Of a stretch of 64,000 bases of DNA, positions 11,000 to 64,000 are shown piece by piece. Below the pieces are notes generated by a model, which was not told the DNA's origin, did not search any database, and worked only from the letters and a program-made list of their open reading frames with translations. The position numbers and the translations under genes are program-made. The stretch lies in the NCBI RefSeq assembly GCF_054482525.1, contig NZ_CM137006.1; one strand, 5' to 3'. Numbering within the stretch: position 1 is the stretch's first letter; the number at the start of each line of letters is the position of its first letter.

Positions 11000-11145
11000 C
11001 TGAAACGGGAAAGCCCCTCCCGAGGAAGGGGCCATAAATAAGGAAAGGGTCATGATGAAGCTACTCATCATCGTGGTGCTCTTAGTCATTAGCTACCCAG
11101 CATACTAAGACTACCAGGGCGGGGGAAACCCCGCTCTACCCTCAC
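11000..11145 (-). ncRNA. sibB: Sib-family antisense sRNA (antitoxin) overlapping ibsB; boundaries approximate
   Basis: A minus-strand promoter-like element lies downstream of the ibs stop (TTGACA as reverse complement of 11174-11179; weak -10 near 11151-11156). A minus-strand hairpin followed by a U-rich tract lies near 11000-11040. The extent is inferred, not mapped. Confidence 0.4.
11052..11108 (+). CDS. ibsB: Ibs-family type I toxin, 18-aa hydrophobic peptide (MMKLLIIVVLLVISYPAY)
   Basis: Hand-translated ORF preceded by the SD-like AGGAAAGGG. The peptide matches the Ibs toxin family. The A/B assignment is from memory of the K-12 peptides and the copy nearest mdtA. Confidence 0.75.
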   Translation: MMKLLIIVVLLVISYPAY

Positions 11146-11329
11146 TCCTGAAAGTATGCCTTCACGATAAGATTGTCAATCTGCAGGCTTTGCAGTCTGC
11201 GATCCTGCCAGCAAATATTCTTTGCGAGACGTTACGCAATAATCACACTGGAAACTATTTTATCCGCAAGTCAGCGATAGACTGCATACAGGGCGAAAGG
11301 AGGTAAGCCGACGATTTCAGCGGGACGCT

Positions 11330-11480
11330 GAAACGGGAAACCCTCTCCCGGAGAAGAGGGCTTTTAATAAGGAAAGGGTTATGATGAAGCACGTCATCAT
11401 ACTGGTGATACTCTTAGTGATTAGCTTCCAGGCTTACTAAGAACACCAGGGGGAGGGGGAAACCTCTCCCTAACCCTCAC
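11330..11480 (-). ncRNA. sibA: Sib-family antisense sRNA (antitoxin) overlapping ibsA; boundaries approximate
   Basis: Same architecture as the first unit: minus-strand -35-like TTGACA (reverse complement of 11509-11514) and the hairpin CCCTCT...AGAGGG at ~11341-11360. Confidence 0.4.
11381..11440 (+). CDS. ibsA: Ibs-family type I toxin, 19-aa hydrophobic peptide (MMKHVIILVILLVISFQAY)
   Basis: Hand-translated ORF in the second repeat unit, with an SD-like GGAAAGGG upstream. Confidence 0.75.
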   Translation: MMKHVIILVILLVISFQAY

Positions 11481-11660
11481 TCCTGAAATTATGTCACTCC
11501 GCCCTTAGTGTCAATCGACGGCTCTCCGTTCTTGCGAGGCGAATAGCAAAATTTTCTGCGCCGCCGGGCCTAATTCTGAAAGTTTCTTCGTTTGCTCTTA
11601 TTTCATTGTTGCAGTCGGTATGATACCGGACCTCGATAATTCTCTAAGAAAGGATTTCTT

Positions 11661-26109: not shown

Positions 26110-26550
26110 AGTAAGTACAAAACCTATTCGTTGTATGACAAATGTCACAATTCGATCATGGATAAATCGGGGCAAAAATGCAATGTTGCAGCACTATTTA
26201 TCTCATATTATTTGAGGTTTATAACCTCACATTATCCCTGAATTAAAAGTGGTAATAATAAAACATTATTTAAGAAATATCGCATGTGGAGACACTATAT
26301 TAAATATTGTCAACCTAAAGAAACTCCTAAAAACCATATTGAATGACACTTAATATAATTCTTAAAAATAGCCAATTGCCGAATTGTTACCTTGCCTGCT
26401 ATTCCGTTAGCTGTAACACTTCCTCCTGCATTATTGGAGAGCCAATATTCAATTACCATAATGTCACCTTATATTCGGAAGTTAATTTCCGCAATAACCC
26501 TTTCTCATCAACGACTGTATGTTGAGAGGGTTTTAAAAATTAAGCTAAAT

Positions 26551-26589
26551 CAGTGTATTGGTAGCTAAAAAGCCAGGGGCGGTAGCGTG
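26551..26589 (+). promoter_or_regulatory. JUMPstart element with ops site (GGCGGTAGCGTG) in the wza leader; RfaH-dependent antitermination signal
   Basis: CAGTGTATTGGTAGCTAAAAAGCCAGGGGCGGTAGCGTG contains the two GGTAGC half-sites and the ops core at 26578-26589, about 180 bp upstream of the wza start. Confidence 0.85.
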
Positions 26590-26767: not shown

Positions 26768-27907
26768 ATGATGAAATCCAAAATGAAATTGATGCCATTA
26801 TTGGTGTCAGTAACCTTGATAAGCGGTTGCACAGTACTTCCGGGCAGCAATATGTCGACGATGGGGAAAGACGTCATCAAACAGCAGGACGCTGATTTCG
26901 ATCTCGACAAAATGGTGAATGTTTATCCGTTGACCCCGCGCCTGATTGATCAATTACGACCACGCCCGAATGTAGCGCGCCCCAATATGACGCTGGAAAG
27001 TGAGATCGCGAATTATCAGTATCGCGTCGGGCCGGGGGACGTTCTTAATGTCACCGTCTGGGATCACCCGGAACTCACCACGCCAGCCGGTCAGTACCGC
27101 AGCTCCAGCGACACCGGCAACTGGGTACAGCCTGACGGCACTATGTTTTACCCGTATATCGGCAAGGTTCACGTGGTGGGGAAAACGCTCGCTGAAATCC
27201 GCAGTGATATTACCGGGCGCTTAGCGACGTACATCGCTGACCCGCAGGTGGACGTTAATATCGCCGCCTTCCGCTCGCAAAAAGCCTATATCTCCGGTCA
27301 GGTGAATAAATCCGGTCAACAGGCCATCACCAACGTGCCACTGACCATTCTTGATGCCATCAACGCCGCAGGTGGCCTGACCGACACCGCTGACTGGCGC
27401 AACGTAGTGCTAACACACAATGGTCGTGAAGAGCGCATTTCTTTGCAGGCGCTGATGCAAAACGGCGACCTCAATCAGAACCGACTGCTTTACCCCGGCG
27501 ATATTCTCTACGTGCCGCGTAATGATGATCTGAAAGTGTTTGTGATGGGTGAAGTGAAGAAACAGAGCACCCTGAAAATGGACTTTAGCGGCATGACCCT
27601 GACTGAAGCCCTTGGTAATGCTGAAGGCATCGACATGACCACCTCCAACGCCAGCGGCATCTTTGTCATTCGTCCGCTGAAAGGCGAGGGTGGGCGTAAC
27701 GGCAAGATTGCCAATATCTACCAGCTGGATATGTCCGATGCCACGTCGCTGGTGATGGCGACAGAATTCCGCCTGCAACCTTATGACGTGGTGTATGTCA
27801 CCACCGCACCGGTTTCCCGCTGGAACCGTCTGATCAATCAGTTGCTGCCAACTATTAGCGGTGTCCGTTACATGACGGATACAGCCAGCGACATTCATAA
27901 CTGGTAA
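26768..27907 (+). CDS. wza: Outer-membrane polysaccharide export lipoprotein Wza
   Basis: 379-aa ORF with a lipoprotein signal ([21 protein letters not shown]); first gene of the colanic acid cluster. Confidence 0.93.
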
Positions 27908-40921: not shown

Positions 40922-41022
40922 CAGTTGAATAATCAACCGGATTAATTCTCCGGTAAATAACGACAAAAACAAAATTGGCCGTTTCGGTCAGGGCCAACTA
41001 TTGCCTGAAAAAGGGTAACGAC

Positions 41023-42393
41023 ATGAAAAAATTAACCTGCTTTAAAGTCTACGATATTCGCGGGAAATTAGGCGAAGAACTGAATGAAGATATTGCCTGG
41101 CGTATTGGTCGCGCCTATGGCGAATTTCTTAAACCGAAAACCATTGTTTTAGGCGGTGATGTCCGCCTCACCAGCGAAACCTTAAAACTGGCGCTGGCAA
41201 AAGGTTTACAGGATGCGGGCGTCGATGTGCTGGATATTGGCATGTCCGGCACCGAAGAGATCTATTTCGCCACGTTCCATCTCAGCGTGGATGGCGGCAT
41301 TGAAGTTACCGCCAGCCATAACCCGATGGATTACAACGGCATGAAGCTGGTGCGCGAAGGGGCTCGCCCGATCAGCGGCGATACCGGACTGCGCGACGTC
41401 CAGCGTCTGGCAGAAGCCAATGACTTCCCTCCTGTCGATGAAACCAAACGCGGTCGCTATCAGCAAATCAATCTGCGTGACGCTTACGTTGATCACCTGT
41501 TCGGTTATATCAACGTCAAAAACCTCACGCCGCTCAAGCTGGTGATCAACTCCGGGAACGGCGCGGCGGGGCCGGTGGTGGACGCCATTGAAGCCCGCTT
41601 TAAAGCCCTCGGCGCACCCGTGGAATTGATCAAAGTGCACAACACGCCGGACGGGAATTTCCCCAACGGTATTCCTAACCCGCTGCTGCCGGAATGTCGC
41701 GACGACACCCGCAATGCGGTCATCAAACACGGCGCGGATATGGGCATTGCCTTTGATGGCGATTTTGACCGCTGTTTCCTGTTTGACGAAAAAGGGCAGT
41801 TTATCGAGGGCTACTACATTGTTGGCCTGCTGGCAGAAGCGTTCCTCGAAAAAAATCCCGGCGCGAAGATCATCCACGATCCACGTCTCTCCTGGAACAC
41901 CGTTGATGTGGTGACTGCCGCAGGCGGCACCCCGGTAATGTCGAAAACCGGACACGCCTTTATTAAAGAACGTATGCGCAAGGAAGACGCCATCTACGGT
42001 GGCGAAATGAGCGCCCACCATTACTTCCGTGATTTCGCTTACTGCGACAGCGGCATGATCCCGTGGCTGCTGGTCGCCGAACTGGTGTGCCTGAAAGGGA
42101 AAACGCTGGGCGAACTGGTGCGCGACCGGATGGCAGCGTTTCCGGCAAGCGGTGAGATCAACAGCAAACTGGCGCACCCCGTTGAGGCGATTAATCGCGT
42201 CGAACAGCATTTTAGCCGTGAGGCGCTGGCGGTGGATCGCACCGATGGCATCAGCATGACCTTTGCCGACTGGCGCTTTAACCTGCGCTCCTCCAACACC
42301 GAACCGGTGGTGCGGTTGAATGTGGAATCGCGCGGCGATGTACCGCTGATGGAAGCGCGAACGCGAACTCTGCTGACGTTGCTGAACGAGTAA
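41023..42393 (+). CDS. cpsG: Phosphomannomutase (colanic acid copy)
   Basis: I place the start at the ATG at 41023 ([14 protein letters not shown]...), giving 456 aa. Phosphoserine loop TASHNP and metal-binding FDGDFDR are present. Confidence 0.93.
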
Positions 42394-49296: not shown

Positions 49297-49453
49297 ATTT
49301 GCGACCATTCATAAACTTACTGGATATAATGTTCTAAAAGATTATAATCCTCACACTAACTGTTAAAGCTGGGGCTGGGCAGCATTGACTACTCAGGGAA
49401 GGTACTCATCTTTATCTTGTGTTTCTTACGTAACAACCAGACTAAAGTGATTT

Positions 49454-50449
49454 ATGAACGATAACGTTTTGCTCATAGGAGCTTCCGGATTCGTAGGAAC
49501 CCGACTACTTGAAACGGCAATTGCTGACTTTAATATCAAGAACCTGGACAAACAGCAGAGCCACTTTTATCCAGAAATCACACAGATTGGCGATGTTCGT
49601 GATCAACAGACACTCGACCAGGCGTTAGCCGGTTTTGACACTGTTGTACTACTGGCAGCGGAACACCGCGATGATGTCAGTCCTACTTCTCTCTATTATG
49701 ATGTCAACGTTCAGGGTACCCGCAATGTACTGGCGGCCATGGAAAAAAATGGCGTTAAAAATATCATCTTTACCAGTTCCGTTGCTGTTTATGGTTTGAA
49801 CAAACACAACCCTGACGAAAACCATCCACACGACCCTTTCAACCACTACGGCAAAAGTAAGTGGCAGGCAGAGGAGGTGCTGCGTGAATGGTATAACAAA
49901 GCACCAACAGAACGTTCATTAACCATCATCCGTCCTACCGTTATCTTCGGTGAACGCAACCGCGGTAACGTCTATAACTTGCTGAAACAGATCGCTGGCG
50001 GCAAGTTTATGATGGTGGGCGCAGGGACTAACTATAAGTCCATGGCTTATGTTGGAAACATTGTTGAGTTTATTAAGTACAAACTGAAGAATGTTGCCGC
50101 AGGTTATGAGGTTTATAACTACGTTGATAAGCCAGACCTGAACATGAACCAGTTGGTTGCTGAAGTTGAACAAAGCCTGAACAAAAAGATCCCTTCTATG
50201 CACTTGCCTTACCCACTAGGAATGCTGGGTGGATATTGCTTTGATATCCTGAGCAAAATTACGGGCAAAAAATACGCTGTCAGCTCTGTGCGCGTGAAAA
50301 AATTCTGCGCAACTACACAGTTTGACGCAACGAAAGTGCATTCTTCAGGTTTTGTGGCACCGTATACGCTGTCGCAAGGTCTGGATCGAACTCTGCAGTA
50401 TGAATTCGTCCATGCCAAAAAAGACGACATAACGTTTGTTTCTGAGTAA
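49454..50449 (+). CDS. gne: NAD-dependent epimerase of the Gne/Gnu type (UDP-GalNAc or GlcNAc-PP-undecaprenol 4-epimerase family)
   Basis: 331-aa ORF with a Rossmann N-terminus (LLIGASGFVGTRLLE), located between wcaM and galF. Assignment rests on the fold and this characteristic position. Confidence 0.7.
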   Translation: MNDNVLLIGASGFVGTRLLETAIADFNIKNLDKQQSHFYPEITQIGDVRDQQTLDQALAGFDTVVLLAAEHRDDVSPTSLYYDVNVQGTRNVLAAMEKNGVKNIIFTSSVAVYGLNKHNPDENHPHDPFNHYGKSKWQAEEVLREWYNKAPTERSLTIIRPTVIFGERNRGNVYNLLKQIAGGKFMMVGAGTNYKSMAYVGNIVEFIKYKLKNVAAGYEVYNYVDKPDLNMNQLVAEVEQSLNKKIPSMHLPYPLGMLGGYCFDILSKITGKKYAVSSVRVKKFCATTQFDATKVHSSGFVAPYTLSQGLDRTLQYEFVHAKKDDITFVSE

Positions 50450-50691: not shown

Positions 50692-51585
50692 ATGACGAAT
50701 TTAAAAGCAGTTATACCGGTAGCAGGTCTTGGGATGCATATGTTGCCTGCCACTAAGGCGATACCCAAAGAGATGCTACCGATCGTCGACAAGCCAATGA
50801 TTCAGTACATTGTTGACGAGATTGTGGCTGCAGGGATCAAAGAAATCCTCCTGGTAACTCATGCGTCCAAGAACGCGGTCGAAAACCACTTCGACACCTC
50901 TTATGAATTAGAATCTCTCCTTGAACAGCGCGTGAAGCGTCAGCTGCTGGCGGAAGTGCAGTCGATCTGTCCACCGGGAGTGACCATTATGAACGTGCGT
51001 CAGGGCGAACCTTTAGGTTTAGGCCACTCCATTTTGTGTGCGCGACCCGCCATTGGCGACAACCCATTTGTCGTGGTACTGCCAGACGTAGTGATCGACG
51101 ACGCCAGCGCCGACCCGCTGCGCTACAACCTTGCTGCCATGATTGCGCGCTTCAATGAAACGGGCCGTAGCCAGGTGCTGGCAAAACGTATGCCGGGTGA
51201 CCTTTCTGAATACTCCGTTATTCAGACCAAAGAGCCGCTGGATCGTGAAGGCAAAGTCAGCCGCATTGTTGAATTTATCGAAAAACCGGATCAGCCGCAG
51301 ACGCTGGACTCAGACATCATGGCCGTTGGTCGCTATGTGCTTTCTGCGGATATTTGGCCGGAACTTGAACGCACTCAACCTGGTGCATGGGGGCGTATTC
51401 AGCTGACTGATGCCATTGCTGAACTGGCGAAAAAACAGTCCGTTGATGCAATGCTGATGACCGGTGACAGTTACGATTGTGGCAAGAAAATGGGCTATAT
51501 GCAGGCGTTTGTGAAGTATGGACTGCGCAACCTGAAAGAAGGGGCGAAGTTCCGTAAAGGTATTGAAAAGCTGTTAAGCGAATAA
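50692..51585 (+). CDS. galF: UTP-glucose-1-phosphate uridylyltransferase paralogue GalF
   Basis: 297-aa ORF starting [41 protein letters not shown]; marks the 5' flank of O-antigen clusters. Confidence 0.93.
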
Positions 51586-51838
51586 TGAAAATCTGACCGG
51601 ATGTAACGGTTGATAAGAAAATTATAACGGCGGTGAGGATTCGTGGGGCTAATTGTACTCATTGCCTCATTCTTTCTTTATACCGTTCTAAATATGAGTA
51701 ACAATAACTTTTCAATAGGCATTTATTGTGGGAGGCTGAGATTTTCTCCATCTCTGAAGCGATTTGGTAAAACGTTCAGAGTTAAGCTTTTCGAACTAAC
51801 CATAACGGTTAATGCTAGTTACAACTAGGACATGCATG

Positions 51839-51877
51839 CAGTACGCTGGTAGCTGTTGAGCCAGGGGCGGTAGCGTG
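51839..51877 (+). promoter_or_regulatory. JUMPstart element with ops site (GGCGGTAGCGTG) in the O-antigen cluster leader
   Basis: CAGTACGCTGGTAGCTGTTGAGCCAGGGGCGGTAGCGTG has the same architecture as the wza-leader element; ops core at 51866-51877, about 80 bp upstream of wzx. Confidence 0.85.
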
Positions 51878-51957
51878 AATTAAATGTTTATCCCATATTA
51901 CTTAACAAATTGTAAACTATCGTGCAAAATAAGACTTGTTAAGTACGTAGGCTCGTT

Positions 51958-53193
51958 ATGTTAAAAAACATCATCTATTTATTAAGCGTTCAAGGTGGCA
52001 ATTATATATTTCCATTGGTCACACTGCCTTATCTTGTCAGGATCCTTGAACCTACAGGATACGGGATATATGGGTATAGTTTTGCTGTGGTCCAATATTT
52101 TATATTATTTATTGATTACGGATTTAACTACTCAGCGCCCAAAATCATATCAATATCAAGGGAAAATACTGATTCCATAAGTAAAGTTTTTTGGAATGTA
52201 ACGTTTATCAAAATAATTGCAGCATCTCTTGGTTTGTTAATTATTTATTTAATTTCGGAATTGAATATCATTGATTACCAAATTAAATTTATCATTCTTG
52301 CATACATATCTGTCGTAGGAAATTTAATATATCCAGTATGGTTTTTTCAAGGGCTGGAAAAAATGTTAGGAATAGCGATAAGTATGTTTTCCGCACGCTT
52401 ACTTACACTATGTTTAACATTTTTATTGGTTAAAAGTGAAAAGGATCTTGGTATAGCGATAACAATACAATCATCAATAACAGTTATTGCAGGTATAATA
52501 TCTACATATTTTTTATTTTCTCTTAAAAAAATAATATGGGTACCACCATCCTTATCCAAAATGAAAGAGTTAATTTATGATGGATGGCATTACTTCATTT
52601 CCTCTGCAGCAATAAGCCTTTATACTACTAGTTCAACAATAATATTAGGTGCATTATCAGGAACAACTGCAGTGGGATATTTTATCGCTGCAGATAAAAT
52701 TAGGCTTGCACTACAAGGCGTTATTGGTCCTATAACCCAAGCTGTTTTTCCTAGAGTAACTTATATAATGAAGGATAATCATGACGATGGACTATTATTA
52801 GCCAGGAAAGTGTTTCGATGGCAATTTTCACTGATGTTCGTACTTTCCATATTTCTTTACTTTTTTGCAGACGATATAATTTTAATCATGTATGGAAAAA
52901 CGTATCATGAATCTTTAGAAATACTCAAGGTTTTAGCTTTTACTCCAGCAATAGTTACGGTAAGTAATTATATTGCAATTTTAGTAATGATCCCTATTGG
53001 TATGAAAAAAGAATTTACAAAAATTATTACTACCAGTGGATTAATAGGCCTACTGATAATTACTTATTTGACTAATGAATACTCAGGAGTTGGTACAGCA
53101 ATAGGAGTTATTTCAACTGAGTTTATAATAATGGCGAGATTTTACTTTTTGATTAAGAAAACAAATAAATTAAATAATTTAAATTTATTGTAG
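51958..53193 (+). CDS. wzx: O-antigen flippase Wzx
   Basis: 411-aa AT-rich polytopic membrane ORF with a PST-family N-terminus (...IFPLVTLPYLVRILEPTGYGIYG...). Confidence 0.8.
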   Translation: MLKNIIYLLSVQGGNYIFPLVTLPYLVRILEPTGYGIYGYSFAVVQYFILFIDYGFNYSAPKIISISRENTDSISKVFWNVTFIKIIAASLGLLIIYLISELNIIDYQIKFIILAYISVVGNLIYPVWFFQGLEKMLGIAISMFSARLLTLCLTFLLVKSEKDLGIAITIQSSITVIAGIISTYFLFSLKKIIWVPPSLSKMKELIYDGWHYFISSAAISLYTTSSTIILGALSGTTAVGYFIAADKIRLALQGVIGPITQAVFPRVTYIMKDNHDDGLLLARKVFRWQFSLMFVLSIFLYFFADDIILIMYGKTYHESLEILKVLAFTPAIVTVSNYIAILVMIPIGMKKEFTKIITTSGLIGLLIITYLTNEYSGVGTAIGVISTEFIIMARFYFLIKKTNKLNNLNLL

Positions 53194-53201
53194 GGCTAAC
53201 A

Positions 53202-53927
53202 ATGAATAAACCAACTTTAACAATAGTTACCGTTGTGTACAATGGCGAAATGTATATCGAAGATACTATAAAAAGTGTCTTATCACAAAACTGCAATGAT
53301 GACATTGAATATATTATAATTGATGGTGCATCAACGGATAATACTCTAAATATTGTTAATTCTTACAAAAATGAAATTTCATATATCATTTCTGAAAATG
53401 ATAATGGTATATATGATGCAATGAATAAAGGTGTGTTAAAAGCATCTGGAAATTATATAGGATTTATAAACGCTGATGATTTTTATAATAAAGATGTATT
53501 ATGTCAAGTAATAAAAGTAATGAAAGAAAATAAATATGATGTTATTTATGGAAATATGTCTTTGGTAGAGGCTGATAGCTTGGATGTTATTCAGGTCCGG
53601 AGGCCTAAAGACTGGAAACTACATATAGATATGAATTTAAGCCATCCGGCCACATTTATTAGAAAAGATATCCACAGAGAAAATTTATTTAATACTAGCT
53701 ATAAAATTGCTTCTGATTATGATCTTTTGCTAAAATTGAAGAAACAAGGTTATATCTTTCATTATATTGATAAAAATATCTCTTCGATGAGAAATGCCGG
53801 CCTTAGCGCTAAAAATGTAAAATTAGCATTGGAGGAAGCGAGACAAATCCGAAAGAAAAGAAACGGGAAATTATATGCGGCGTTAGCAGATATTTACCTA
53901 TTTATGAGAAAAGTTATAAAAAGATGA
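53202..53927 (+). CDS. O-antigen glycosyltransferase, GT2 family (WcaE-like)
   Basis: 241-aa ORF with IIIDGASTDNT and [11 protein letters not shown] motifs shared with WcaE. Confidence 0.75.
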   Translation: MNKPTLTIVTVVYNGEMYIEDTIKSVLSQNCNDDIEYIIIDGASTDNTLNIVNSYKNEISYIISENDNGIYDAMNKGVLKASGNYIGFINADDFYNKDVLCQVIKVMKENKYDVIYGNMSLVEADSLDVIQVRRPKDWKLHIDMNLSHPATFIRKDIHRENLFNTSYKIASDYDLLLKLKKQGYIFHYIDKNISSMRNAGLSAKNVKLALEEARQIRKKRNGKLYAALADIYLFMRKVIKR

Positions 53928-55159
53928 TTAATAGAAACATAAAAATTAGTGCTTCATTTATTTCAATAATTTATTTGCCTTTTGCTTTATTATTAGCAAT
54001 GATTGAAATGATTAATGGGGCCAGATGGAGTGTTTATGTATGTTCATTTATGCTAGGGGTACTAGCATTTTTGTTAATACCTTATGAAAATTGGGATTTG
54101 ACTAGGCATTATGAAACATATTTATATGTTAGTCAAACATCACTAAACAAAGTTTTTGAAAATAGTGACAATAGATATATTACAATAAATACTGTTATTT
54201 ATTTATTTAAATCTTTAGGAATAAAAAAAGAATTTTTACCTTTTTTTTCAACATTTTTATCATATATTTTTTATTTTAATATATATGTTAATCACATTAA
54301 AAAATACAATCCGGAATTATCTCATAGATGTATATATTTATATATTCTAATAAGCGTAATCCCATTTTTTGCTATAGCTAGTTCATTGCGGCAATATCTT
54401 GCATTTAGTATTATGCTTTATATGATCATACAGTATTTCACCAGTGAAAATAATAGGTATAAGTCACAAAAAATTATATTCTCTGCAATTATTTCATGTT
54501 GTATTCATCCCAGCGCAATACTATTGCTAGGTGTTTTTTTTGTTAGCAAATTAATAAGACTTAACAAAACAATATTGTATTTAATAATATTAGTTCTAAT
54601 CCTTAACCATGATGGATTAATATCTTCTTTGCTATTTCAATTGATTAGGCCATTATTGGAAAGCTTAGGTTTTTACTTTCCCGAATATATGGACTCTGTA
54701 ACCATAGGCATAAGCAATAGCTTGCTGAGCACTAATGAATATATCTTGAATAAGATCATATTACCGTCAGTGTTTTTTATTTTTACTTTTATCTATTTAA
54801 TTTTATTTAATAAAAAAATGACGAGGCAAGAGTCACAAATCAAAAATTTTTGCAGTTTACTTCTTTTGCTGATATGCCTTTTATCGTTATCGCCTGATTT
54901 ATTTTATCGATTTTCCATTTTCTGGGTGTTATTATATAGTTATATATTTTTCTCCTACGATATTAATAAAATTAGCAAACTATGTAAGCATCTGATCTTC
55001 TTAATACTCATTACCGCATGTTCAATCATAAATTTGGCACAGGCAAATATGGGTAAAGATATTATTTATGTGTCTTGGTGCGATATATTGTATAAGCCCT
55101 CATTATTCCTATTCAATAAAGAAGTTAAATCAGCAGAATATATAAGAGTGAGTCAATAA
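53924..55159 (+). CDS. wzy: O-antigen polymerase Wzy
   Basis: 411-aa very hydrophobic, AT-rich ORF with many predicted membrane segments and no recognisable catalytic motif, as is typical of Wzy. Confidence 0.7.
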   Translation: MINRNIKISASFISIIYLPFALLLAMIEMINGARWSVYVCSFMLGVLAFLLIPYENWDLTRHYETYLYVSQTSLNKVFENSDNRYITINTVIYLFKSLGIKKEFLPFFSTFLSYIFYFNIYVNHIKKYNPELSHRCIYLYILISVIPFFAIASSLRQYLAFSIMLYMIIQYFTSENNRYKSQKIIFSAIISCCIHPSAILLLGVFFVSKLIRLNKTILYLIILVLILNHDGLISSLLFQLIRPLLESLGFYFPEYMDSVTIGISNSLLSTNEYILNKIILPSVFFIFTFIYLILFNKKMTRQESQIKNFCSLLLLLICLLSLSPDLFYRFSIFWVLLYSYIFFSYDINKISKLCKHLIFLILITACSIINLAQANMGKDIIYVSWCDILYKPSLFLFNKEVKSAEYIRVSQ

Positions 55160-55160
55160 A

Positions 55161-56228
55161 ATGTCCATTGGAGTCTTTAAGCTGTATGAAAATAAAATAG
55201 GTGGCACTGAGAAAGCAGTTGAAAATCTAATTGATATATTAACTAAAAACAGCCTACAAGTGAGATGTTTTTCAGCAATAAACGCACAAGAGATACAAGT
55301 TAGAGAAGATAATCGGAAAACCTACTTATTCCAAGACAATACTGCATATGAAGAAAGCAAATTAAGGTTTTACATTAAATATTTGTTTTTTTTGAGTGCC
55401 AAAAGTAAAGACCTTGAATTAATAATTTCCACGGATATAGCTACATCATCATTATTGTTATTGATTGGTTTTTTTCGGTGTAATAAGAATAAAATTATTT
55501 GCTGGGAACATTATCCATTTGACAAGAATAGTATTTTTTGGAGAAAAGTATTTAAATTTCTTTTGTCTCTTAATAAAAAAGCTGTAGTAGTTTGTAATTC
55601 TCACAAGGAAAAAGATAAGTTTACTTTTTGTAAAAGGGTTGTAATTATACCAAATTCAATCAAAACGCAAAAATATAAGCGCATACATCAAGGAAAAGAA
55701 ACTCTTGATTTGATTTATATTGGTCGGATTGTTAAAGATAAAGGAGTTGAAAGGTTAATTAATGCAGTAATAAATCACCCGTCTACAAAAAAGTATGTTT
55801 TACACATTGTAGGAGGTGGTCAAGAGCTGGAGTATCTCAAATCTAAATATAAGAATAACAACCAAATACACTTTCATGGACCGAGTTTAAACACAGATGT
55901 TTTTTTGGCAAAAAGTGATGTTTTTGTATCCGGTTCATACTTTGAATGTTTTCCTGTTACAATACTTGAAGCTATGTCCTACGGATTACCTGTAATTTCA
56001 ATGGATATATCTGGAGGGACAAGTAGCGTGATTTCTTCATCGGGTGGCGGATTTGTGTGTCAATCTCAAATTGAATTTCAGGAAAAACTAACTTACTTTG
56101 AAGATAATGTTAAACGAACCGAACACGGAAATGCAGGATTCCTATTCGTGAATAGACATTATACAGAAGAAATAGTTAGTGCTCAGTGGATGAGTTTGAT
56201 CAATCGAGCCAATAGTCAAGAAAATTAA
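55161..56228 (+). CDS. O-antigen glycosyltransferase, GT4 family
   Basis: 355-aa ORF with a GT-B C-terminal motif region (...SGSYFECFPVTILEAMSYGLPVIS...). Confidence 0.75.
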   Translation: MSIGVFKLYENKIGGTEKAVENLIDILTKNSLQVRCFSAINAQEIQVREDNRKTYLFQDNTAYEESKLRFYIKYLFFLSAKSKDLELIISTDIATSSLLLLIGFFRCNKNKIICWEHYPFDKNSIFWRKVFKFLLSLNKKAVVVCNSHKEKDKFTFCKRVVIIPNSIKTQKYKRIHQGKETLDLIYIGRIVKDKGVERLINAVINHPSTKKYVLHIVGGGQELEYLKSKYKNNNQIHFHGPSLNTDVFLAKSDVFVSGSYFECFPVTILEAMSYGLPVISMDISGGTSSVISSSGGGFVCQSQIEFQEKLTYFEDNVKRTEHGNAGFLFVNRHYTEEIVSAQWMSLINRANSQEN

Positions 56229-56248
56229 GGTATTGGAGCTATTAAAGT

Positions 56249-57265
56249 ATGAGCATACTTGTGACTGGTGGGGCTGGCTATATTGGCTCACATGCTATAT
56301 TAACTTTATTGCAAAATGGATATGATGTTATATCGCTAGATAATTATTGCAATTCCTCTCCAAAATCTCTAGAACGAGTAGAGGAAATTTGCTTATCTAA
56401 GATAAAAAAATTACGTGGTGATATTAGAGATAGACATATATTAAAAAATATCTTTTCAAAATATAATGTTTCTACTGTAATGCATTTTGCGGGTTTAAAA
56501 TCTGTTAACGAGTCCATTAAAAAACCATTAGAATATTACGACACAAATCTTTTGGGGACTCTAATATTACTTGATGAAATGCAGAAAGCGAATATTTCTA
56601 ATCTAATTTTTAGTTCGTCTGCTACTGTCTATGGCAATCCTCATTATGTTCCAATATCTGAAAAACACCCTGTCGGTGAGGTGATCAATCCGTACGGTCG
56701 TTCAAAGTTTATGGTGGAACATATATTGCGTGATTTTTGTAACGCGAATAGCGACGCAAATATCACAATACTAAGATATTTTAATCCTGTAGGTGCTCAT
56801 AAGACTGGATTAATTGGAGAAGATCCTTTAGGAACTCCTAATAACCTGTTTCCCTATGTTGCGCAAGTCGCAATTGGAAAATTACCCTATCTAAATGTTT
56901 TTGGTAATAAATATATGACAAAAGATGGAACAGGTGTAAGAGATTATATCCATGTAGTCGATTTAGTTGAGGGGCATCTTGCCGCTTTAAAAAATCTCAA
57001 TAGAAACCGGGGGCTTAAAGTTTTTAATTTAGGCACTGGTCAAGGTTATAGTGTGTTAGATATCATCGACGCTTTTAAACTGGAAACAGGACGCGATATA
57101 CCTTTCCGTATCGTTTCTGAGCGAAATGGAGATGTGGCTGAATGTTGGTCCGATCCTTCCTTAGCAAACGAGCAGCTAAGTTGGGTTGCTAAAAGGACTC
57201 TTAATAATATGGTGGAAGATGCATGGAGATGGCAAACAATGAATCCAAATGGATATAAAGAGTAA
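56249..57265 (+). CDS. GalE-family UDP-hexose 4-epimerase (UDP-Glc/Gal or UDP-GlcNAc/GalNAc)
   Basis: 338-aa ORF starting MSILVTGGAGYIGSH..., with catalytic YGRSK. Substrate specificity cannot be told from sequence alone. Confidence 0.8.
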   Translation: MSILVTGGAGYIGSHAILTLLQNGYDVISLDNYCNSSPKSLERVEEICLSKIKKLRGDIRDRHILKNIFSKYNVSTVMHFAGLKSVNESIKKPLEYYDTNLLGTLILLDEMQKANISNLIFSSSATVYGNPHYVPISEKHPVGEVINPYGRSKFMVEHILRDFCNANSDANITILRYFNPVGAHKTGLIGEDPLGTPNNLFPYVAQVAIGKLPYLNVFGNKYMTKDGTGVRDYIHVVDLVEGHLAALKNLNRNRGLKVFNLGTGQGYSVLDIIDAFKLETGRDIPFRIVSERNGDVAECWSDPSLANEQLSWVAKRTLNNMVEDAWRWQTMNPNGYKE

Positions 57266-57333
57266 ATTGAAACAATTATAATCATCCATTTCATTGCTTA
57301 CTGTATTGTTATCTATATATATGAAAACAAAAA

Positions 57334-58341
57334 ATGAAAATATTATATGATGGGATTGTGAAAAGTTTACAATCATATGGTGGTATCACTGTATACTTTG
57401 AAGAAATCATTAAGAGATTAAAAAATGACGAATACAAATTCATTCAATTTAATGATAAAAATGAAAATCACAATGATGATCTCCATCGGCCATGCCGGTT
57501 TTTAGAACGATATAGATGTTTTGAAGCATTAAAAAGTGATTCAGATTACAGTATATTTCATTCTACATATTATCGGGTTCCGAAAGATGGGGAATATGCG
57601 GTTGTGACCACGGTCCACGATTTCACATATGAATTGTATATGAAAGGACTTCGGCGCAATGTTCATAGCTTACAAAAAAGATGGGCTGTGAAACATAGCG
57701 ATGCAATCATTTGTGTCTCTAATAATACAGCCAAGGATTTAATTAATTTCTTTAAGGTTGATGAAAAAAAGATACATGTTATTCATAATGGTGTATCGGA
57801 AGATTATAGACACTTAAATCTAGAAAAAGAAAATTTTGTGCTTTTTGTCGGTGCTCGTTCAGGATATAAAAATTTTGAGCTTGCAGTTAAAGCCGTTTCT
57901 AAACTTTTTGATACTAATCTTAAAATAGTCGGCGGAGGTGGTTTAAATAAAGCAGAAATGAAGTTACTATCTGAATATCTTCCAGAAAGATTCCAGTACT
58001 TAGGGAAGGTATCAAATGAAAAACTAAATATATTATATAATTCGGCTTATTGCTTAATCTATCCTTCAGAATATGAAGGGTTTGGAATTCCCTTGCTTGA
58101 GGCTATGCGAACTGGCTGTCCTGTGATAGCCGTAAATAGATCATCAATACCCGAGGTTGTGGGGGATAGTGCGATTTTAGTCGAAGAAGTATCAATTGAA
58201 AGTTTATTCTCAGCTTTATTAAGTGTAGAAGCTAACGCTAATGAATTAAAAAATAAAGGATTAGCGCAATCTAATAAATTTTCATGGGGGAAGTGTTTCT
58301 CCGAAACATATAATCTATATAAATCACTATCTAAGTTTTGA
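57334..58341 (+). CDS. O-antigen glycosyltransferase, GT4 family
   Basis: 335-aa ORF with the motif region ...[25 protein letters not shown]... Confidence 0.75.
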
Positions 58342-58351
58342 GAGGTTATTT

Positions 58352-59473
58352 ATGTGTAAGAAAGCTTTAATTACAGGAATTACCGGGCAAGATGGTTCCT
58401 ACTTGGCAGAATTTCTGCTTAAAAAAGGCTATGAGGTTCATGGAATAAAACGTCGATCTTCCTTGTTTAATACTGACCGTATTGATCATATATATCAAGA
58501 CCCACACCATCGTAATTTAAAATTACAACTTCATTATGGTGATTTAACAGATACTTCTAATTTGACTCGGATATTATCTGAAGTTCAACCTGATGAAGTT
58601 TATAATCTTGGCGCAATGAGTCACGTAGCTGTTTCCTTCGAATCCCCAGAATATACAGCTGATGTTGATGCTATAGGTACTTTACGATTATTGGAAGCTA
58701 TTCGTTTTTTGGGATTAGAAAAAAAAACCCGATTTTATCAGGCGTCAACCTCTGAATTGTATGGATTAGTTCAGGAAGTTCCACAAAAAGAGACAACGCC
58801 GTTCTATCCTCGTTCACCTTATGCCGTAGCTAAACTGTATGCATATTGGATCACTGTAAACTATCGTGAGTCTTATGGAATGTATGCATGTAACGGTATT
58901 TTGTTCAATCATGAATCCCCACGTCGTGGGGAAACGTTTGTAACACGTAAAATCACACGTGCTATAGCTAATATATCGCAGGGAATAGAAAAATGCTTAT
59001 ATCTTGGCAACATGGATTCTTTACGCGATTGGGGGCATGCGAAAGATTATGTTCGTATGCAATGGATGATGCTTCAACAAGACCAGCCAGAAGACTTTGT
59101 TATTGCCACCGGCAAACAAATATCTGTACGTGAATTTGTCCGTATGTCTGCTAAAGAAGTTGGACTTGAACTTGAGTTTTCCGGTACTGGTGTTGATGAG
59201 ATTGCATTTGTTGTAAATAAAACATCAGATTGCGCCGTTGGTGTTAATATTGGTGATGTTATTGTTCGCGTTGACCCTCGTTATTTTCGACCAGCAGAAG
59301 TTGAAACTCTTCTTGGTGATCCAACAAAAGCAAAAAATGTCTTGGGTTGGGAGCCAGAGATTACAGTTGAAGAAATGTGTGCAGAAATGGTGGCTAGTGA
59401 TTTAGAAAAAGCTAAACAGCATGCACTTCTTAAAAGCCATGGTTTTGACGTGGCAGTCTCTTTGGAGCGTTAA
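58352..59473 (+). CDS. gmd: GDP-mannose 4,6-dehydratase (O-antigen copy)
   Basis: 373-aa ORF with high protein similarity by eye to the colanic-acid Gmd (35691..36812), but with AT-rich codon usage. Confidence 0.93.
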
Positions 59474-59476
59474 AGT

Positions 59477-60442
59477 ATGACCAAGAAGCGAATTTTTGTG
59501 GCTGGACATCGTGGGATGGTTGGTTCTGCTATTTGTCGTCAATTATTAGCACGTAATGATGTTGAGTTAATTGTCAAAACTCACAAAGAACTCGATTTGA
59601 CAGTTCAAAAGGATGTTGAATGTTTTTTTGAGCAAGAGAGAATAGATCAGGTTTACCTTGCAGCAGCAAAAGTAGGAGGAATTCATGCTAATAACACTTT
59701 TCCAGCTGAATTTATTTATCAGAACCTTCTTATTGAAAGCAATATTATTCACTCATCTTACAAAGCGGGCATAAAGAAACTATTATTCTTAGGGTCAAGT
59801 TGTATCTATCCAAAGTTTGCAGAACAGCCAATGAAAGAATCTGCACTTTTGACGGGAACTCTTGAGCCTACTAATGAGCCTTATGCTATTTCCAAAATAG
59901 CAGGTATAAAGCTATGTGAATCTTATAATCGCCAATATGGATGTGATTATCGCAGTGTAATGCCTACTAACTTATATGGTATGAATGATAATTTTCATCC
60001 CAATAACTCACATGTAATTCCAGCGCTTATGCGGCGTTTTCATGAAGCAAAGGAACTTGGTTTAAATGAAGTGGTTGTCTGGGGAACGGGAACTCCAAAA
60101 CGCGAGTTTTTATATGTTGATGATATGGCCGCTGCATCAGTATATGTGATGGAGCTTGATGATGAAATTTATAAAAAAAATACTCAACCAATGTTATCTC
60201 ATATTAACGTAGGTACTGGTGTTGATTGTTCCATACGTGAAATGGCAGAAACAATGGCTTTAGTTGTTGGCTATGATGGAAAAATTGTTTTTGATATAAC
60301 AAAACCAGATGGTTCGCCTCGTAAACTTATGGATGTTACACGCCTTGAGAATTTGGGTTGGAAATATCGTTATAATTTAAAACAAGGACTAGAATTAACA
60401 TATAAATGGTTTATAAATAATCTTGACTCATTTAGGAGTTAA
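59477..60442 (+). CDS. fcl: GDP-L-fucose synthase (O-antigen copy)
   Basis: 321-aa ORF starting [19 protein letters not shown]..., paralogous to the colanic-acid Fcl. Confidence 0.93.
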
Positions 60443-60444
60443 TA

Positions 60445-60900
60445 TTGAACAAGAGATTAGAAACAGAGTTATTTAAATCAATAGTTGAACATACTCCACT
60501 AATCTCGATAGACCTTATTATAAGAAACGAAGATGGTAAGGCGCTGCTTGGTCAGCGCCTTAATCGTCCAGCACAAAATTATTGGTTTGTGCCGGGGGGA
60601 CGGATTCTTAAAGATGAGTCTTTCGAGAACGCATTCAAAAGAGTTACTTTAGAAGAATTGGGTGTTCAAATTAGCATTAATGAAGCAAAATTTCTTGGGA
60701 TTTATGAACATTTCTACAGCGACAATTTTTCTGGGACTTGTTTTTCAACTCATTATGTCGTACACGGATATGAGATTAGTTTGATGCCACATCAAATTAA
60801 CTATCCAACACTACAACATAGTACTTACAATTGGTTCGATATAGCCGAATTGTTAGCTAATTCCTCAGTTCATCAGTACACAAAAAATTATTTTAAGTGA
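60445..60900 (+). CDS. gmm: GDP-mannose mannosyl hydrolase (Nudix; O-antigen copy)
   Basis: 151-aa ORF with an apparent TTG start at 60445, seven nt after an AGGAG; similar to the colanic-acid Gmm core (...NYWFVPGGR...). Confidence 0.75.
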   Translation: MNKRLETELFKSIVEHTPLISIDLIIRNEDGKALLGQRLNRPAQNYWFVPGGRILKDESFENAFKRVTLEELGVQISINEAKFLGIYEHFYSDNFSGTCFSTHYVVHGYEISLMPHQINYPTLQHSTYNWFDIAELLANSSVHQYTKNYFK

Positions 60901-60911
60901 AGGTTATTTAT

Positions 60912-62297
60912 ATGCTACTTCCTGTTGTAATGGCCGGTGGTTCTGGAACTAGATTGTGGCCACTTTCTCGAACACTATATCCGAAGCAATTCCTATCGTT
61001 AACTAGTCGTTTGACTATGCTACAAGAGACCTTAAGAAGGCTTGAAGGGGTTGAACATCGTCCTGCTCTGGTTATTTGTAATGAAGTTCATCGTTTTATC
61101 GTTGCAGAACAGATGCGTAATGTAAATTTAGCGAATAGTGGCATTTTACTAGAGCCGATAGGTCGTAATACAGCCCCCGCAGTTGCGCTTGCTGCTCTTA
61201 AAGCGATTTCATCAGGTGAGGATCCAATACTGCTTGTACTAGCAGCCGATCATGAAATACAAGACCAAAAGCGCTTTATATCGTCAATATTGGCTGCAAA
61301 AGAATTTGCAGAGGAAGGTAAGCTGGTAACTTTTGGTATTGTGCCAACCAAACCCGAAACTGGATATGGCTACATAAAAACCGGAGAAAATTTAAATGAA
61401 TATGGTTTTAAAGTTTCTGCTTTTGTTGAAAAGCCTGAGCTAGATGTGGCCAAAAAATATCTTGAAGATGGAGATTATCTTTGGAATAGTGGAATATTCA
61501 TGTTTAGGGCTTCTGTGTTTATTGATGAGTTGAATAAATTTAGACCAGACATACTAAAAATATGCCAACAAGCATTGAAGTCCTCTACACAAGATCTTGA
61601 TTTTATCCGTATAGATAATGACTCATTTAGTTGTTGCCCTGAAGAATCCATTGATTACGCTGTTATGGAGAAAACAACAGAGGCTGTGGTAGTTCCATTA
61701 AATGCCCACTGGAGCGATGTTGGTTCTTGGTCTGCATTATGGGAAATTAGCAGAAAAGATAAAAGTGGAAATGCAATTAGAGGAGATGTATTAATTCATG
61801 ATTCTTCTGACAGTTATCTTTACTCACAACATAGATTAATTGGTGTAGTAGGAGTTAAAGATTTAGTAGTTGTTGAAACTAAAGATGCTATTCTCGTTGC
61901 GCATAAAGATAAAGTTCAACAGGTAAAAAATATTGTAGAAAAACTTAAAGTTAATAACCGTACGGAATATCTGCAGCATCGTGAAATATTTAGGCCATGG
62001 GGCAGTCATGACTCTATAGCGGAAGGATCTCGATTTGAGGTTAAACATGTCGTTATTCATCCTGGACATAAAACTGCTAAACAGATTCATTACCATCGTA
62101 CTGAGCATTGGATTGTTGTTTCTGGAACAGCAAAAGTCCATTATGAAGATGAAATATTTCTTGTTTCTGAAAATGAATCAACTTATATACCAATAGGTGT
62201 ACCTCATTTTATTGAGAATCCAGGAAAGATCCCTTTGGAGATTATTGAGGTACGTTCAGGTGTCTACTTGGATGAAGATGATGTTGTTAGAATCTAA
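60912..62297 (+). CDS. manC: Mannose-1-phosphate guanylyltransferase (O-antigen copy)
   Basis: I place the start at the ATG at 60912 ([20 protein letters not shown]...); the ORF track uses an in-frame GTG at 60897. Paralogue of cpsB. Confidence 0.88.
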   Translation: MLLPVVMAGGSGTRLWPLSRTLYPKQFLSLTSRLTMLQETLRRLEGVEHRPALVICNEVHRFIVAEQMRNVNLANSGILLEPIGRNTAPAVALAALKAISSGEDPILLVLAADHEIQDQKRFISSILAAKEFAEEGKLVTFGIVPTKPETGYGYIKTGENLNEYGFKVSAFVEKPELDVAKKYLEDGDYLWNSGIFMFRASVFIDELNKFRPDILKICQQALKSSTQDLDFIRIDNDSFSCCPEESIDYAVMEKTTEAVVVPLNAHWSDVGSWSALWEISRKDKSGNAIRGDVLIHDSSDSYLYSQHRLIGVVGVKDLVVVETKDAILVAHKDKVQQVKNIVEKLKVNNRTEYLQHREIFRPWGSHDSIAEGSRFEVKHVVIHPGHKTAKQIHYHRTEHWIVVSGTAKVHYEDEIFLVSENESTYIPIGVPHFIENPGKIPLEIIEVRSGVYLDEDDVVRI

Positions 62298-62380
62298 AAT
62301 GATGCTGGATACTAATGCAACATTATTATTCGTAATGCTGTACTGACGTTATTTAATTATGATTATTATTGGATGTTAAA

Positions 62381-63127
62381 ATGAAAGTCAGTATTATTAC
62401 AGTGACTTATAATAGTGAAAAGACTTTAAGGGATACTTTAGAGTCAATAGAGTTGCAAACCTATAAAGATATAGAGTATATAATTATTGATGGTGGTTCT
62501 ACAGATAATACGTTAAAACTAATTAACGAAGTATCAACAAGAGTAACCAAATGTCTATCAGAAAGCGATAACGGTATCTATGATGCTTTAAATAAAGGTA
62601 TAAATTTATCTACGGGAGATATTATTGGATTCGTTCATTCTGATGACCTTTTAGCAAGACCTGATATTATTGAAACTATTGTAAGCCGTTTCCATGAGAC
62701 AAAAGCGGATGTTGTATACGGTGATTTGGTTTTTTTCGAAAAAAACCAAACTGATATAATCAAACGATACTGGCGTAGTGGTCCTTTTAAACGTTCTAAG
62801 CTATCATTAGGCTGGGCACCACCGCATCCATCTTTCTATATGAGGAGGGAATTATATAAAGACGATGGATATTTTGATTTATCCTATAGGATTGCTGCAG
62901 ACTATGATCAGATGGTCAGGATTTTGAAACGTGATGATATTAAAGTTATTTATGTTCCTCAAGTATTTGTAAAGATGAGATTGGGTGGGGAAAGTACCAG
63001 AATTGATAACGCGATATCAAGTACAAAGGAAATTGTAGAAGTTATGAAAAACCATAATGTAAATTGGAAAATTGCTATCATTATCAGAAAAATCTCAAAA
63101 CTAATGCAATTGTTTGCGCATAAATAA
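62381..63127 (+). CDS. O-antigen glycosyltransferase, GT2 family (WcaE-like)
   Basis: I place the start at the ATG at 62381 (MKVSIITVTYNSEKTL...), with IIIDGGSTDNT and DNGIYDALNKG motifs; the ORF track starts at a TTG at 62369. Confidence 0.75.
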   Translation: MKVSIITVTYNSEKTLRDTLESIELQTYKDIEYIIIDGGSTDNTLKLINEVSTRVTKCLSESDNGIYDALNKGINLSTGDIIGFVHSDDLLARPDIIETIVSRFHETKADVVYGDLVFFEKNQTDIIKRYWRSGPFKRSKLSLGWAPPHPSFYMRRELYKDDGYFDLSYRIAADYDQMVRILKRDDIKVIYVPQVFVKMRLGGESTRIDNAISSTKEIVEVMKNHNVNWKIAIIIRKISKLMQLFAHK

Positions 63128-63151
63128 TTTTATTATTGGTAAGGTTTTTAT

Positions 63152-64000
63152 ATGAAAAAATTAACCTGCTTTAAAGCCTATGATATTCGCGGGAAATTAG
63201 GCGAAGAACTGAATGAAGATATTGCGTGGCGCATTGGTCGCGCCTATGGCGAATTTCTCAAACCGAAAACCATTGTGTTAGGCGGTGACGTCCGCCTCAC
63301 CAGCGAAACCTTAAAACTGGCGCTGGCGAGAGGTTTACAGGATGCGGGCGTCGATGTGCTGGATATCGGCATGTCCGGCACCGAAGAGATCTATTTCGCC
63401 ACGTTCCATCTCGGCGTGGATGGCGGCATTGAAGTTACCGCCAGCCATAATCCGATGGATTATAACGGCATGAAGCTGGTTCGCGAGGGGGCTCGCCCGA
63501 TCAGCGGAGATACCGGACTGCGCGACGTCCAGCGTCTGGCTGAAGCCAACGACTTTCCTCCCGTCGATGAAACCAAACGCGGTCGCTATCAGCAAATCAA
63601 CCTGCGTGACGCTTACGTTGATCACCTGTTCGGTTATATCAATGTCAAAAACCTCACGCCGCTCAAGCTGGTGATCAACTCCGGGAACGGCGCAGCGGGT
63701 CCGGTGGTGGACGCTATCGAAGCCCGCTTTAAAGCCCTCGGCGCACCTGTGGAATTGATCAAAGTGCACAACACGCCGGACGGCAATTTCCCCAACGGTA
63801 TTCCTAACCCGCTGCTGCCGGAATGTCGCGACGACACCCGCAATGCGGTCATTAAACACGGCGCGGATATGGGCATTGCCTTTGATGGCGATTTTGACCG
63901 CTGTTTCCTGTTTGACGAAAAAGGGCAGTTTATCGAGGGCTACTACATTGTCGGCCTGCTGGCAGAAGCGTTCCTCGAAAAAAATCCCGGCGCGAAGATC
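63152..64000 (+). CDS. manB: Phosphomannomutase (O-antigen copy), 5' 283 codons; the gene continues past the right edge of the window
   Basis: Starts [14 protein letters not shown]... Nucleotide sequence is nearly identical to cpsG from the ATG onward and is GC-rich, unlike the AT-rich genes just upstream. Confidence 0.9.

Follow-up and report, generated by a model that had tools for sequence, protein, structure and literature searches.

JUMPstart/ops elements in the predicted leaders of the colanic-acid and O11 O-antigen operons of an Escherichia coli genome

The 39-nt segment at 51839-51877 very probably (probability of about 0.9) represents a canonical JUMPstart element with its embedded ops sequence, located in the untranslated leader of an Escherichia coli O11 O-antigen operon. 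Its identity, position and sense-strand orientation are established by direct observation. It is one of two such elements in the window, by which we mean the whole 64-kb stretch of DNA that was analysed, the other preceding wza at the head of the colanic-acid operon. The occurrence of JUMPstart both between galF and the O-antigen genes and before wza is textbook knowledge for E. coli and has already been described at both places (PMC6128206; PMC2864571; PMC9765446). What goes beyond the textbook is the setting of the O11 copy, where the upstream promoter region appears to have diverged and JUMPstart alone has been conserved.

Genomic setting of the two operons

The window comes from E. coli and, over its 64 kb, shows 8 mismatches to strain PCN033, an identity of 99.99%. 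Gene names are those of the RefSeq annotation of the PCN033 record, and the genes and operons of interest are as follows.

26768-49296, + strand: 22.5-kb colanic-acid operon wza-wzb-wzc-wcaA..wcaM, with its genes all on one strand (PCN033 annotation)
49454-50449, + strand: gne, between wcaM and galF (annotation)
50692-51585, + strand: galF, a conserved gene beside the O-antigen locus (open reading frame list and annotation)
51958-64000, + strand: O11 O-antigen operon, at least 12 kb and 12 genes, the last one cut by the end of the window

The genes of the O-antigen operon follow each other in the order wzx, GT2, wzy, GT, galE, GT4, gmd, fcl, gmm, manC, GT2 and manB, all with open reading frames on the plus strand and with intergenic gaps of at most 84 nt. 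With its 12 same-strand genes over at least 12 kb, this is a long operon of AT-rich, horizontally acquired genes, of the polarity-prone kind, and promoter-like or terminator-like matches inside it were not more frequent than expected by chance. Flippase and polymerase are both annotated as 'O11 family', and wzx and wzy are serogroup-specific. A comparison of the cluster with serotype references, as proposed in a first-pass annotation of this DNA, supports the assignment, the wzx-wzy region (51958-55159) being at least 99% identical in 65 of 5426 complete E. coli genomes, all of the 'O11 family'.

The two clusters differ in base composition, with GC contents of 0.52-0.57 over most of the colanic-acid cluster vs 0.26-0.38 over most of the O11 genes. 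Values of 0.44-0.47 were found for gne and galF, and the final kb of the window, which contains a cpsG-like manB, reaches 0.50. This O11 manB (63152-64000) is 96.5% identical to the colanic-acid cpsG (41023-42355); no such DNA match to the colanic-acid copies was detected for the O11 gmd, fcl, gmm and manC genes (58352-62297; GC 0.34-0.38). Judging from the sequences, one of the two clusters seems to have converted or replaced the gene of the other, which would account for the likeness of manB and cpsG.

The gne-type 4-epimerase gene at 49454-50449 has no counterpart at this place in K-12, O139, O6 and O172, and is preceded by a good promoter-like match (TGGATA-16-TATAAT, 49321-49348). Since gne lies upstream of the O-antigen ops, it is not under the control of that element.

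Two copies of the JUMPstart/ops element

The two elements and their ops cores have the following positions and sequences.

26551-26589, + strand: JUMPstart element 1, 39-mer CAGTGTATTGGTAGCTAAAAAGCCAGGGGCGGTAGCGTG, leader of the colanic-acid operon
26578-26589, + strand (non-template): ops core GGCGGTAGCGTG, exact match in element 1
51839-51877, + strand: JUMPstart element 2, 39-mer CAGTACGCTGGTAGCTGTTGAGCCAGGGGCGGTAGCGTG, leader of the O11 O-antigen operon
51866-51877, + strand (non-template): ops core GGCGGTAGCGTG, exact match in element 2

The first-pass annotation had proposed JUMPstart/ops elements at these two places, and matches to the Rfam JUMPstart family (RF01707) fall at precisely the same coordinates, with scores of 57.3 bits for element 1 and 57.0 bits for element 2 (E = 1.6e-12 in a local Rfam search) against a gathering score of 35. 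Model positions 1-38 are all covered in both elements (38/39-nt consensus). Both occupy a sense-strand, non-coding position upstream of a polysaccharide operon, element 1 being 178 nt from the wza ATG at 26768 and element 2 being 80 nt from wzx. The second copy thus heads the O-antigen (O11) cluster with the same architecture as the one at wza, as had been claimed. In the AT-rich wza promoter region, RefSeq also annotates a 49-aa hypothetical protein (26310-26459, minus strand) about 90 nt upstream of element 1.

The shared features that had been read from the sequence, namely two GGTAGC half-sites and an identical 3' half, are indeed present: GGTAGC occurs at 26560-26565 and 26581-26586 in element 1 and at 51848-51853 and 51869-51874 in element 2, and the 18-nt 3' half GCCAGGGGCGGTAGCGTG is the same at 26572-26589 and 51860-51877. 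Once aligned, the two elements are identical at 31 of 39 positions; four of the eight mismatches are located 5' of or at the stem base and four in the loop. Comparison of the flanks revealed no likeness beyond the 39-mers.

Such matches are not expected by chance. The ops consensus GGCGGTAGNNTG has two sites in the 64-kb window, both in the leaders (0.06 expected), and none of 100 shuffles of the window contained two copies or more; for the joint pattern GGTAGC...GCCAGGGGCGGTAGCGTG, the expectation is 0.00. When up to two mismatches were tolerated, 10 matches were obtained (8 beyond the two exact ones) vs 5.2 expected, a number attained by 4 of 100 shuffles and only weakly above chance. Both elements carry the 12-nt ops sequence GGCGGTAGnnTG on the non-template strand, and both ops copies have C3, G4, G5, T6, A7, G8, T11 and G12, the bases needed for pausing or RfaH binding (PMC5995543). 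In element 2, the pause position U11 corresponds to 51876. When 51500-52050 was scanned for other RNA families (E up to 1), none was found besides JUMPstart. Element 2 is intergenic, with only short, unsupported open reading frames overlapping the spacer; these mechanical reading frames (22-61 aa) were rejected as genes.

The JUMPstart sequence was reportedly described by Hobbs and Reeves in 1994. Compared with the family as defined in Rfam (RF01707; Weinberg et al. 2010, PMC2864571), the elements have the same 39-nt length, consensus, stem-loop, embedded ops and position, and nothing of substance differs; the O11 copy is set apart by a combination of variable positions of its own, with ACG at positions 5-7 and TTG in the loop.

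Anatomy of the galF-wzx spacer

Element 2 lies in a spacer of 372 bp. The region to which it had been assigned (51586-51957) is this whole spacer, between the galF stop at 51585 and the wzx ATG at 51958. Based on its alignment with the equivalent regions of K-12 (O16), O139, 99_0288, Nissle (O6), O172, O10 and G6/7, the spacer can be divided into five segments, with identities measured against K-12, O139 and 99_0288.

51586-51646, + strand: galF-proximal 61 bp, 92-95% identity to K-12, O139 and 99_0288
51647-51806, + strand: O11-linked divergent block of 160 bp, about 49% identity to the K-12-type block
51807-51838, + strand: semi-conserved 32 bp, including ...CATGCATG, 72-75% identity to the K-12 type
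51839-51877, + strand: JUMPstart segment, 90% identity to K-12, O139 and 99_0288
51878-51957, + strand: O11-specific remainder of the leader, 80 nt, about 32% aligned identity, which amounts to no homology to other serotypes

Database searches are in line with this division. Megablast with the spacer matched 2998 of 5426 genomes, mostly at query positions 1-61, and blastn matches from other serotypes begin in the segment 51807-51838. In the equivalent of 51647-51806, K-12, O139 and 99_0288 are 94-96% alike to each other, and O6, O172 and O10 also have the K-12-type block, as judged from the alignment by eye. The full-length spacer was found in 65 of the 5426 genomes, the same number as for the O11 wzx-wzy region, and the listed accessions overlap. 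O11 and K-12 both have a spacer of 372 bp, two other serotypes have one of 370-371 bp, and the whole O11 spacer aligns to K-12-type sequence at 69% identity in blastn. The kept length and the full-length alignment argue for a deeply diverged homologue rather than an insertion. The O11 cluster thus seems, from these alignments, to carry its own diverged promoter region. A relative of 51647-51838 was sought by blastn among the 120 JUMPstart loci listed from other Enterobacterales, with no match, and the K-12-type sequence gave the only alignment over the full length. The 372-bp spacer aligned (69% identity, 344 aligned columns, query 1-331) to a contig assigned to Arthrobacter sp. GMC3 (4155 bp, coverage 2.0), which carries a K-12-type E. 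coli galF-JUMPstart spacer and is almost certainly E. coli contamination.

The second element had also been proposed to mark the start of the compositionally distinct O-antigen DNA, a view that depends on the scale. At the kb scale it holds, GC falling from 0.46 at 51000-51999 to 0.31 at 52000-52999. On a finer scale it calls for some qualification: the O11-linked divergence sets in 192 bp before the element, at 51647, and GC declines from the galF stop onwards, rising locally where the GC-rich element itself lies. As a description of other serotypes the proposal is accurate, since O6 and O172 compared with K-12 lose homology precisely at the last base of ops and have first genes unrelated to the K-12 rfbB. 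Judged by the alignments, serotype-linked DNA in the O11 locus starts at 51647, and JUMPstart is a conserved island within it. With 90% identity between flanks that have dropped to about 49% and about 32%, the element itself is likely to have been under selection.

Promoter and terminator searches in the spacer

A promoter feeding the O11 ops is presumed to lie upstream of it. In E. coli O7, Marolda and Valvano reportedly described in 1998 a wb* promoter located in the spacer between galF and the first gene, followed by an untranslated leader of 173 nt that contains JUMPstart. With a leader of this length, the K-12-type start would presumably be near TTTGAAT, with TTGTTT-17-GACAAT upstream, and we infer that the K-12/O7-type promoter falls in the equivalent of 51647-51806. 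The O11 locus differs from this type in its first gene (wzx instead of rmlB) and is only about 49% identical to it in the -35/-10 region. In O11, the bases aligned to the K-12-type hexamers TTGTTT/GACAAT are ATCTCT/AACGTT, which do not look like a promoter. To take TGGTAAAAC at 51765-51773 as an extended -10 is speculation.

A scan of the spacer with the sigma-70 consensus did not locate a promoter: it gave three matches vs 1.9 expected, which is chance level, and none of the three is situated between the galF stop and ops, save one that straddles the galF stop. The best of them (TTAACA-17-CAAAAT, 51902-51930, 9/12) is downstream of ops. No intrinsic-terminator-like site was found after galF, so read-through transcripts could reach ops. 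On the colanic-acid side, a search for RcsAB boxes with a possibly imperfect consensus gave none near wza and an overall count at chance. The wzx ATG is preceded, at 6 nt, by a weak AGG.

JUMPstart in other genomes and its conserved stem

When one genome per species was scanned with a pattern that fixed columns 10-15 and 26-39, at least 120 loci were obtained. The loci listed are overwhelmingly from Enterobacterales, including Citrobacter, Enterobacter, Salmonella, Escherichia, Pluralibacter, Kosakonia, Pantoea, Tatumella, Rahnella, Pectobacterium and other genera, and several genomes have two loci. The pattern also matched a few metagenome-assembled genomes from outside the Enterobacterales. 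The exact O11 39-mer had no match among 100,044 species-representative genomes. In E. coli G6/7 (NZ_CP060061.1; positions 1894-1896 of locus L010), RefSeq lets the first glycosyltransferase gene start at the GTG that ends ops, which is probably a mis-called start.

The Rfam consensus structure defines a short stem in the 5' part of the element.

51846-51864, + strand: 5-bp stem CUGGU/GCCAG with a 9-nt loop, columns 8-12/22-26

Both copies in the window form all five pairs (C-G or U-G, U-A, G-C, G-C, U-G). Among the 61 distinct 39-mers of the listed matches, which include the two of the window, the stem is paired in 98% of cells, bearing in mind that the search pattern left only two stem pairs free to vary on both sides. 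Columns 9-25 covary in this set, with 37 U-A, 13 A-U, 5 G-U, 3 G-C and 3 unpaired combinations. None of 500 shuffles reached the observed pairing or covariation, and pairing fell to 20-60% when the partner strand was slid. When the two 39-mers and the 150-nt leader were folded by minimum free energy, none of them did better than shuffles (z = -1.2, 0.0 and +0.3) and the Rfam stem was not returned. Only three additional ops sites without the hairpin turned up in the listed loci; they have an unrelated upstream context and the ops variant GGCGGTAGCCTG, and are uninformative.

Proposed role in RfaH recruitment

Suppression of operon polarity by ops and RfaH was reportedly described by Bailey in 1997 and by Artsimovitch and Landick in 2002. 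In later work, the RfaH-controlled operons were all found to carry the 12-nt ops in their leader, where it acts as a strong consensus pause at U11; RfaH meets G5 and T6 on a hairpin of the non-template strand (C3:G8), and is no longer recruited when G4, G5, A7 or G8 is substituted (Zuber 2018, PMC5995543; Zuber 2024, PMC11001881). Once loaded, RfaH is not released before termination; it keeps NusG out and brings the 30S subunit to leaders without Shine-Dalgarno elements (PMC5995543; PMC11001881). The two window copies share with this system the identical 12-nt GGCGGTAGCGTG, its location on the non-template strand and its position in the presumed leader.

By analogy, RNA polymerase that starts in the galF-wzx spacer, or reads through from galF, would pause at U11 of ops, and the exposed non-template strand would fold into a small hairpin presenting G5 and T6 to RfaH. 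Freed from autoinhibition, RfaH would then travel with the polymerase over the whole rest of the operon, keeping NusG off. Rho-dependent polarity, as well as H-NS/StpA roadblocks in the AT-rich foreign DNA, would be suppressed, and ribosome recruitment would be helped on genes with weak Shine-Dalgarno sites. This mechanism is established for the family and would by extension apply to the O11 locus. The rfaH gene is outside the window.

The closest precedent is found in E. coli CFT073, which has the same neighbouring loci, wza-wcaM and a wzx-headed O-antigen cluster, each with a leader ops (Hustmyer et al. 2022, PMC9765446). ChIP-seq in this strain located RfaH at eight leader ops sites, including those of the O-antigen (wzx) and wza-wcaM operons, and the RfaH targets are all H-NS-bound, AT-rich DNA (PMC9765446). 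The first-pass annotation had placed both clusters under the same antitermination logic, and for the two homologous leaders of CFT073 this has already been demonstrated by RfaH binding. The wza-wcaM signal appeared only after H-NS/StpA silencing of initiation was removed (PMC9765446), which suggests that the two clusters share elongation control and have separate initiation control. The GC content of the O11 genes, far below that of the colanic-acid cluster, points to the same H-NS-prone setting as for the RfaH targets of CFT073. The two strains differ in serotype and in the spacer: CFT073 is O6, with a K-12-type spacer up to ops, whereas the O11 spacer of the window has the divergent 160-bp block.

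Both the colanic-acid and O11 operons carry an RfaH loading signal, as expected for E. coli and with no new biology. With such a signal at the O11 operon, O-antigen expression should depend on RfaH, and the same should apply to serum resistance and virulence of O11 ExPEC strains such as PCN033.

Alternative readings of the O11 element

Two readings would deprive the O11 element of a regulatory role. It could be kept mainly as a recombination edge for O-antigen exchange, and thus be a mere junction relic here. The break of homology between O6 or O172 and K-12 at the last ops base is what one would expect if crossovers resolved within the galF-JUMPstart stretch. Yet in the O11 locus the upstream 51647-51806 is itself divergent, which leaves the element as an island rather than as the border of conserved flanking DNA; moreover, the 39-mer is conserved before wza and across many genera, and a stem pair covaries, all of which indicates selection on function. 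A relic without regulatory role is thus highly improbable, and serving as a recombination edge is better regarded as a compatible side-role than as an alternative, the two roles not being mutually exclusive. It is also improbable, if slightly less so, that most transcription of the O11 operon starts at a promoter beyond ops, with the element bypassed and irrelevant. The best sigma-70-like match of the spacer does come after ops, but such matches are at chance in AT-rich DNA, the conservation of the element against its divergent flanks argues for its use, and the O-antigen leader ops of CFT073 does bind RfaH (PMC9765446).

A last reading adds to ops recognition rather than replacing it. The 5' half of JUMPstart might form a structured nascent RNA hairpin of the his type, which could lengthen the ops pause and so give RfaH, a protein of low abundance, time to bind. 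At the his pause, a 5-bp stem with a loop of 8-9 nt lies 11-12 nt behind the paused 3' end. JUMPstart, whose 5-bp stem closes a 9-nt loop and extends to column 26, 12 nt before the pause at column 38, resembles it in geometry only. The paired and covarying Rfam stem speaks for such a hairpin, and its G-U variants fit a structure of the sense strand; in addition, the ops-pause study cited here used ops without an upstream hairpin (PMC11001881). Against it, energy-based folding failed to recover the stem, only one pair covaries under a pattern that fixed columns 10-15 and 26-39, and a hairpin of the non-template DNA would yield the same covariation. The ops pause is also biochemically distinct from hairpin-stabilised pauses such as that of his, being pre-translocated or backtrack-prone (PMC11001881). 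No study was found that tests what the JUMPstart hairpin does. On this evidence, a contribution of the RNA hairpin to pausing is possible but rather unlikely, and we are a little more doubtful still about the full proposal that the consensus and his-type pauses together lengthen the window for RfaH loading. If true, the proposal would account for the retention of the whole 39-mer, instead of the 12-mer alone, in polysaccharide operons, and the O11 locus, where the island has diverged DNA on either side, would illustrate it well.

Other RNA elements in the window

Besides JUMPstart, two further RNA families were identified in the window. An algC RNA motif (RF02929; gathering score 33.8) scores 78 bits at 40969-41018 on the plus strand, in the cpsB-cpsG spacer. 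It lies directly upstream of the colanic-acid phosphomannomutase gene, and no copy was detected before the O11 manB. Two SIB antitoxin RNAs (RF00113) were found on the minus strand at 11037-11179 and 11366-11514, with 142 and 150 bits, respectively; both are situated between yegL and mdtA, beside genes annotated as ibs type I toxins.
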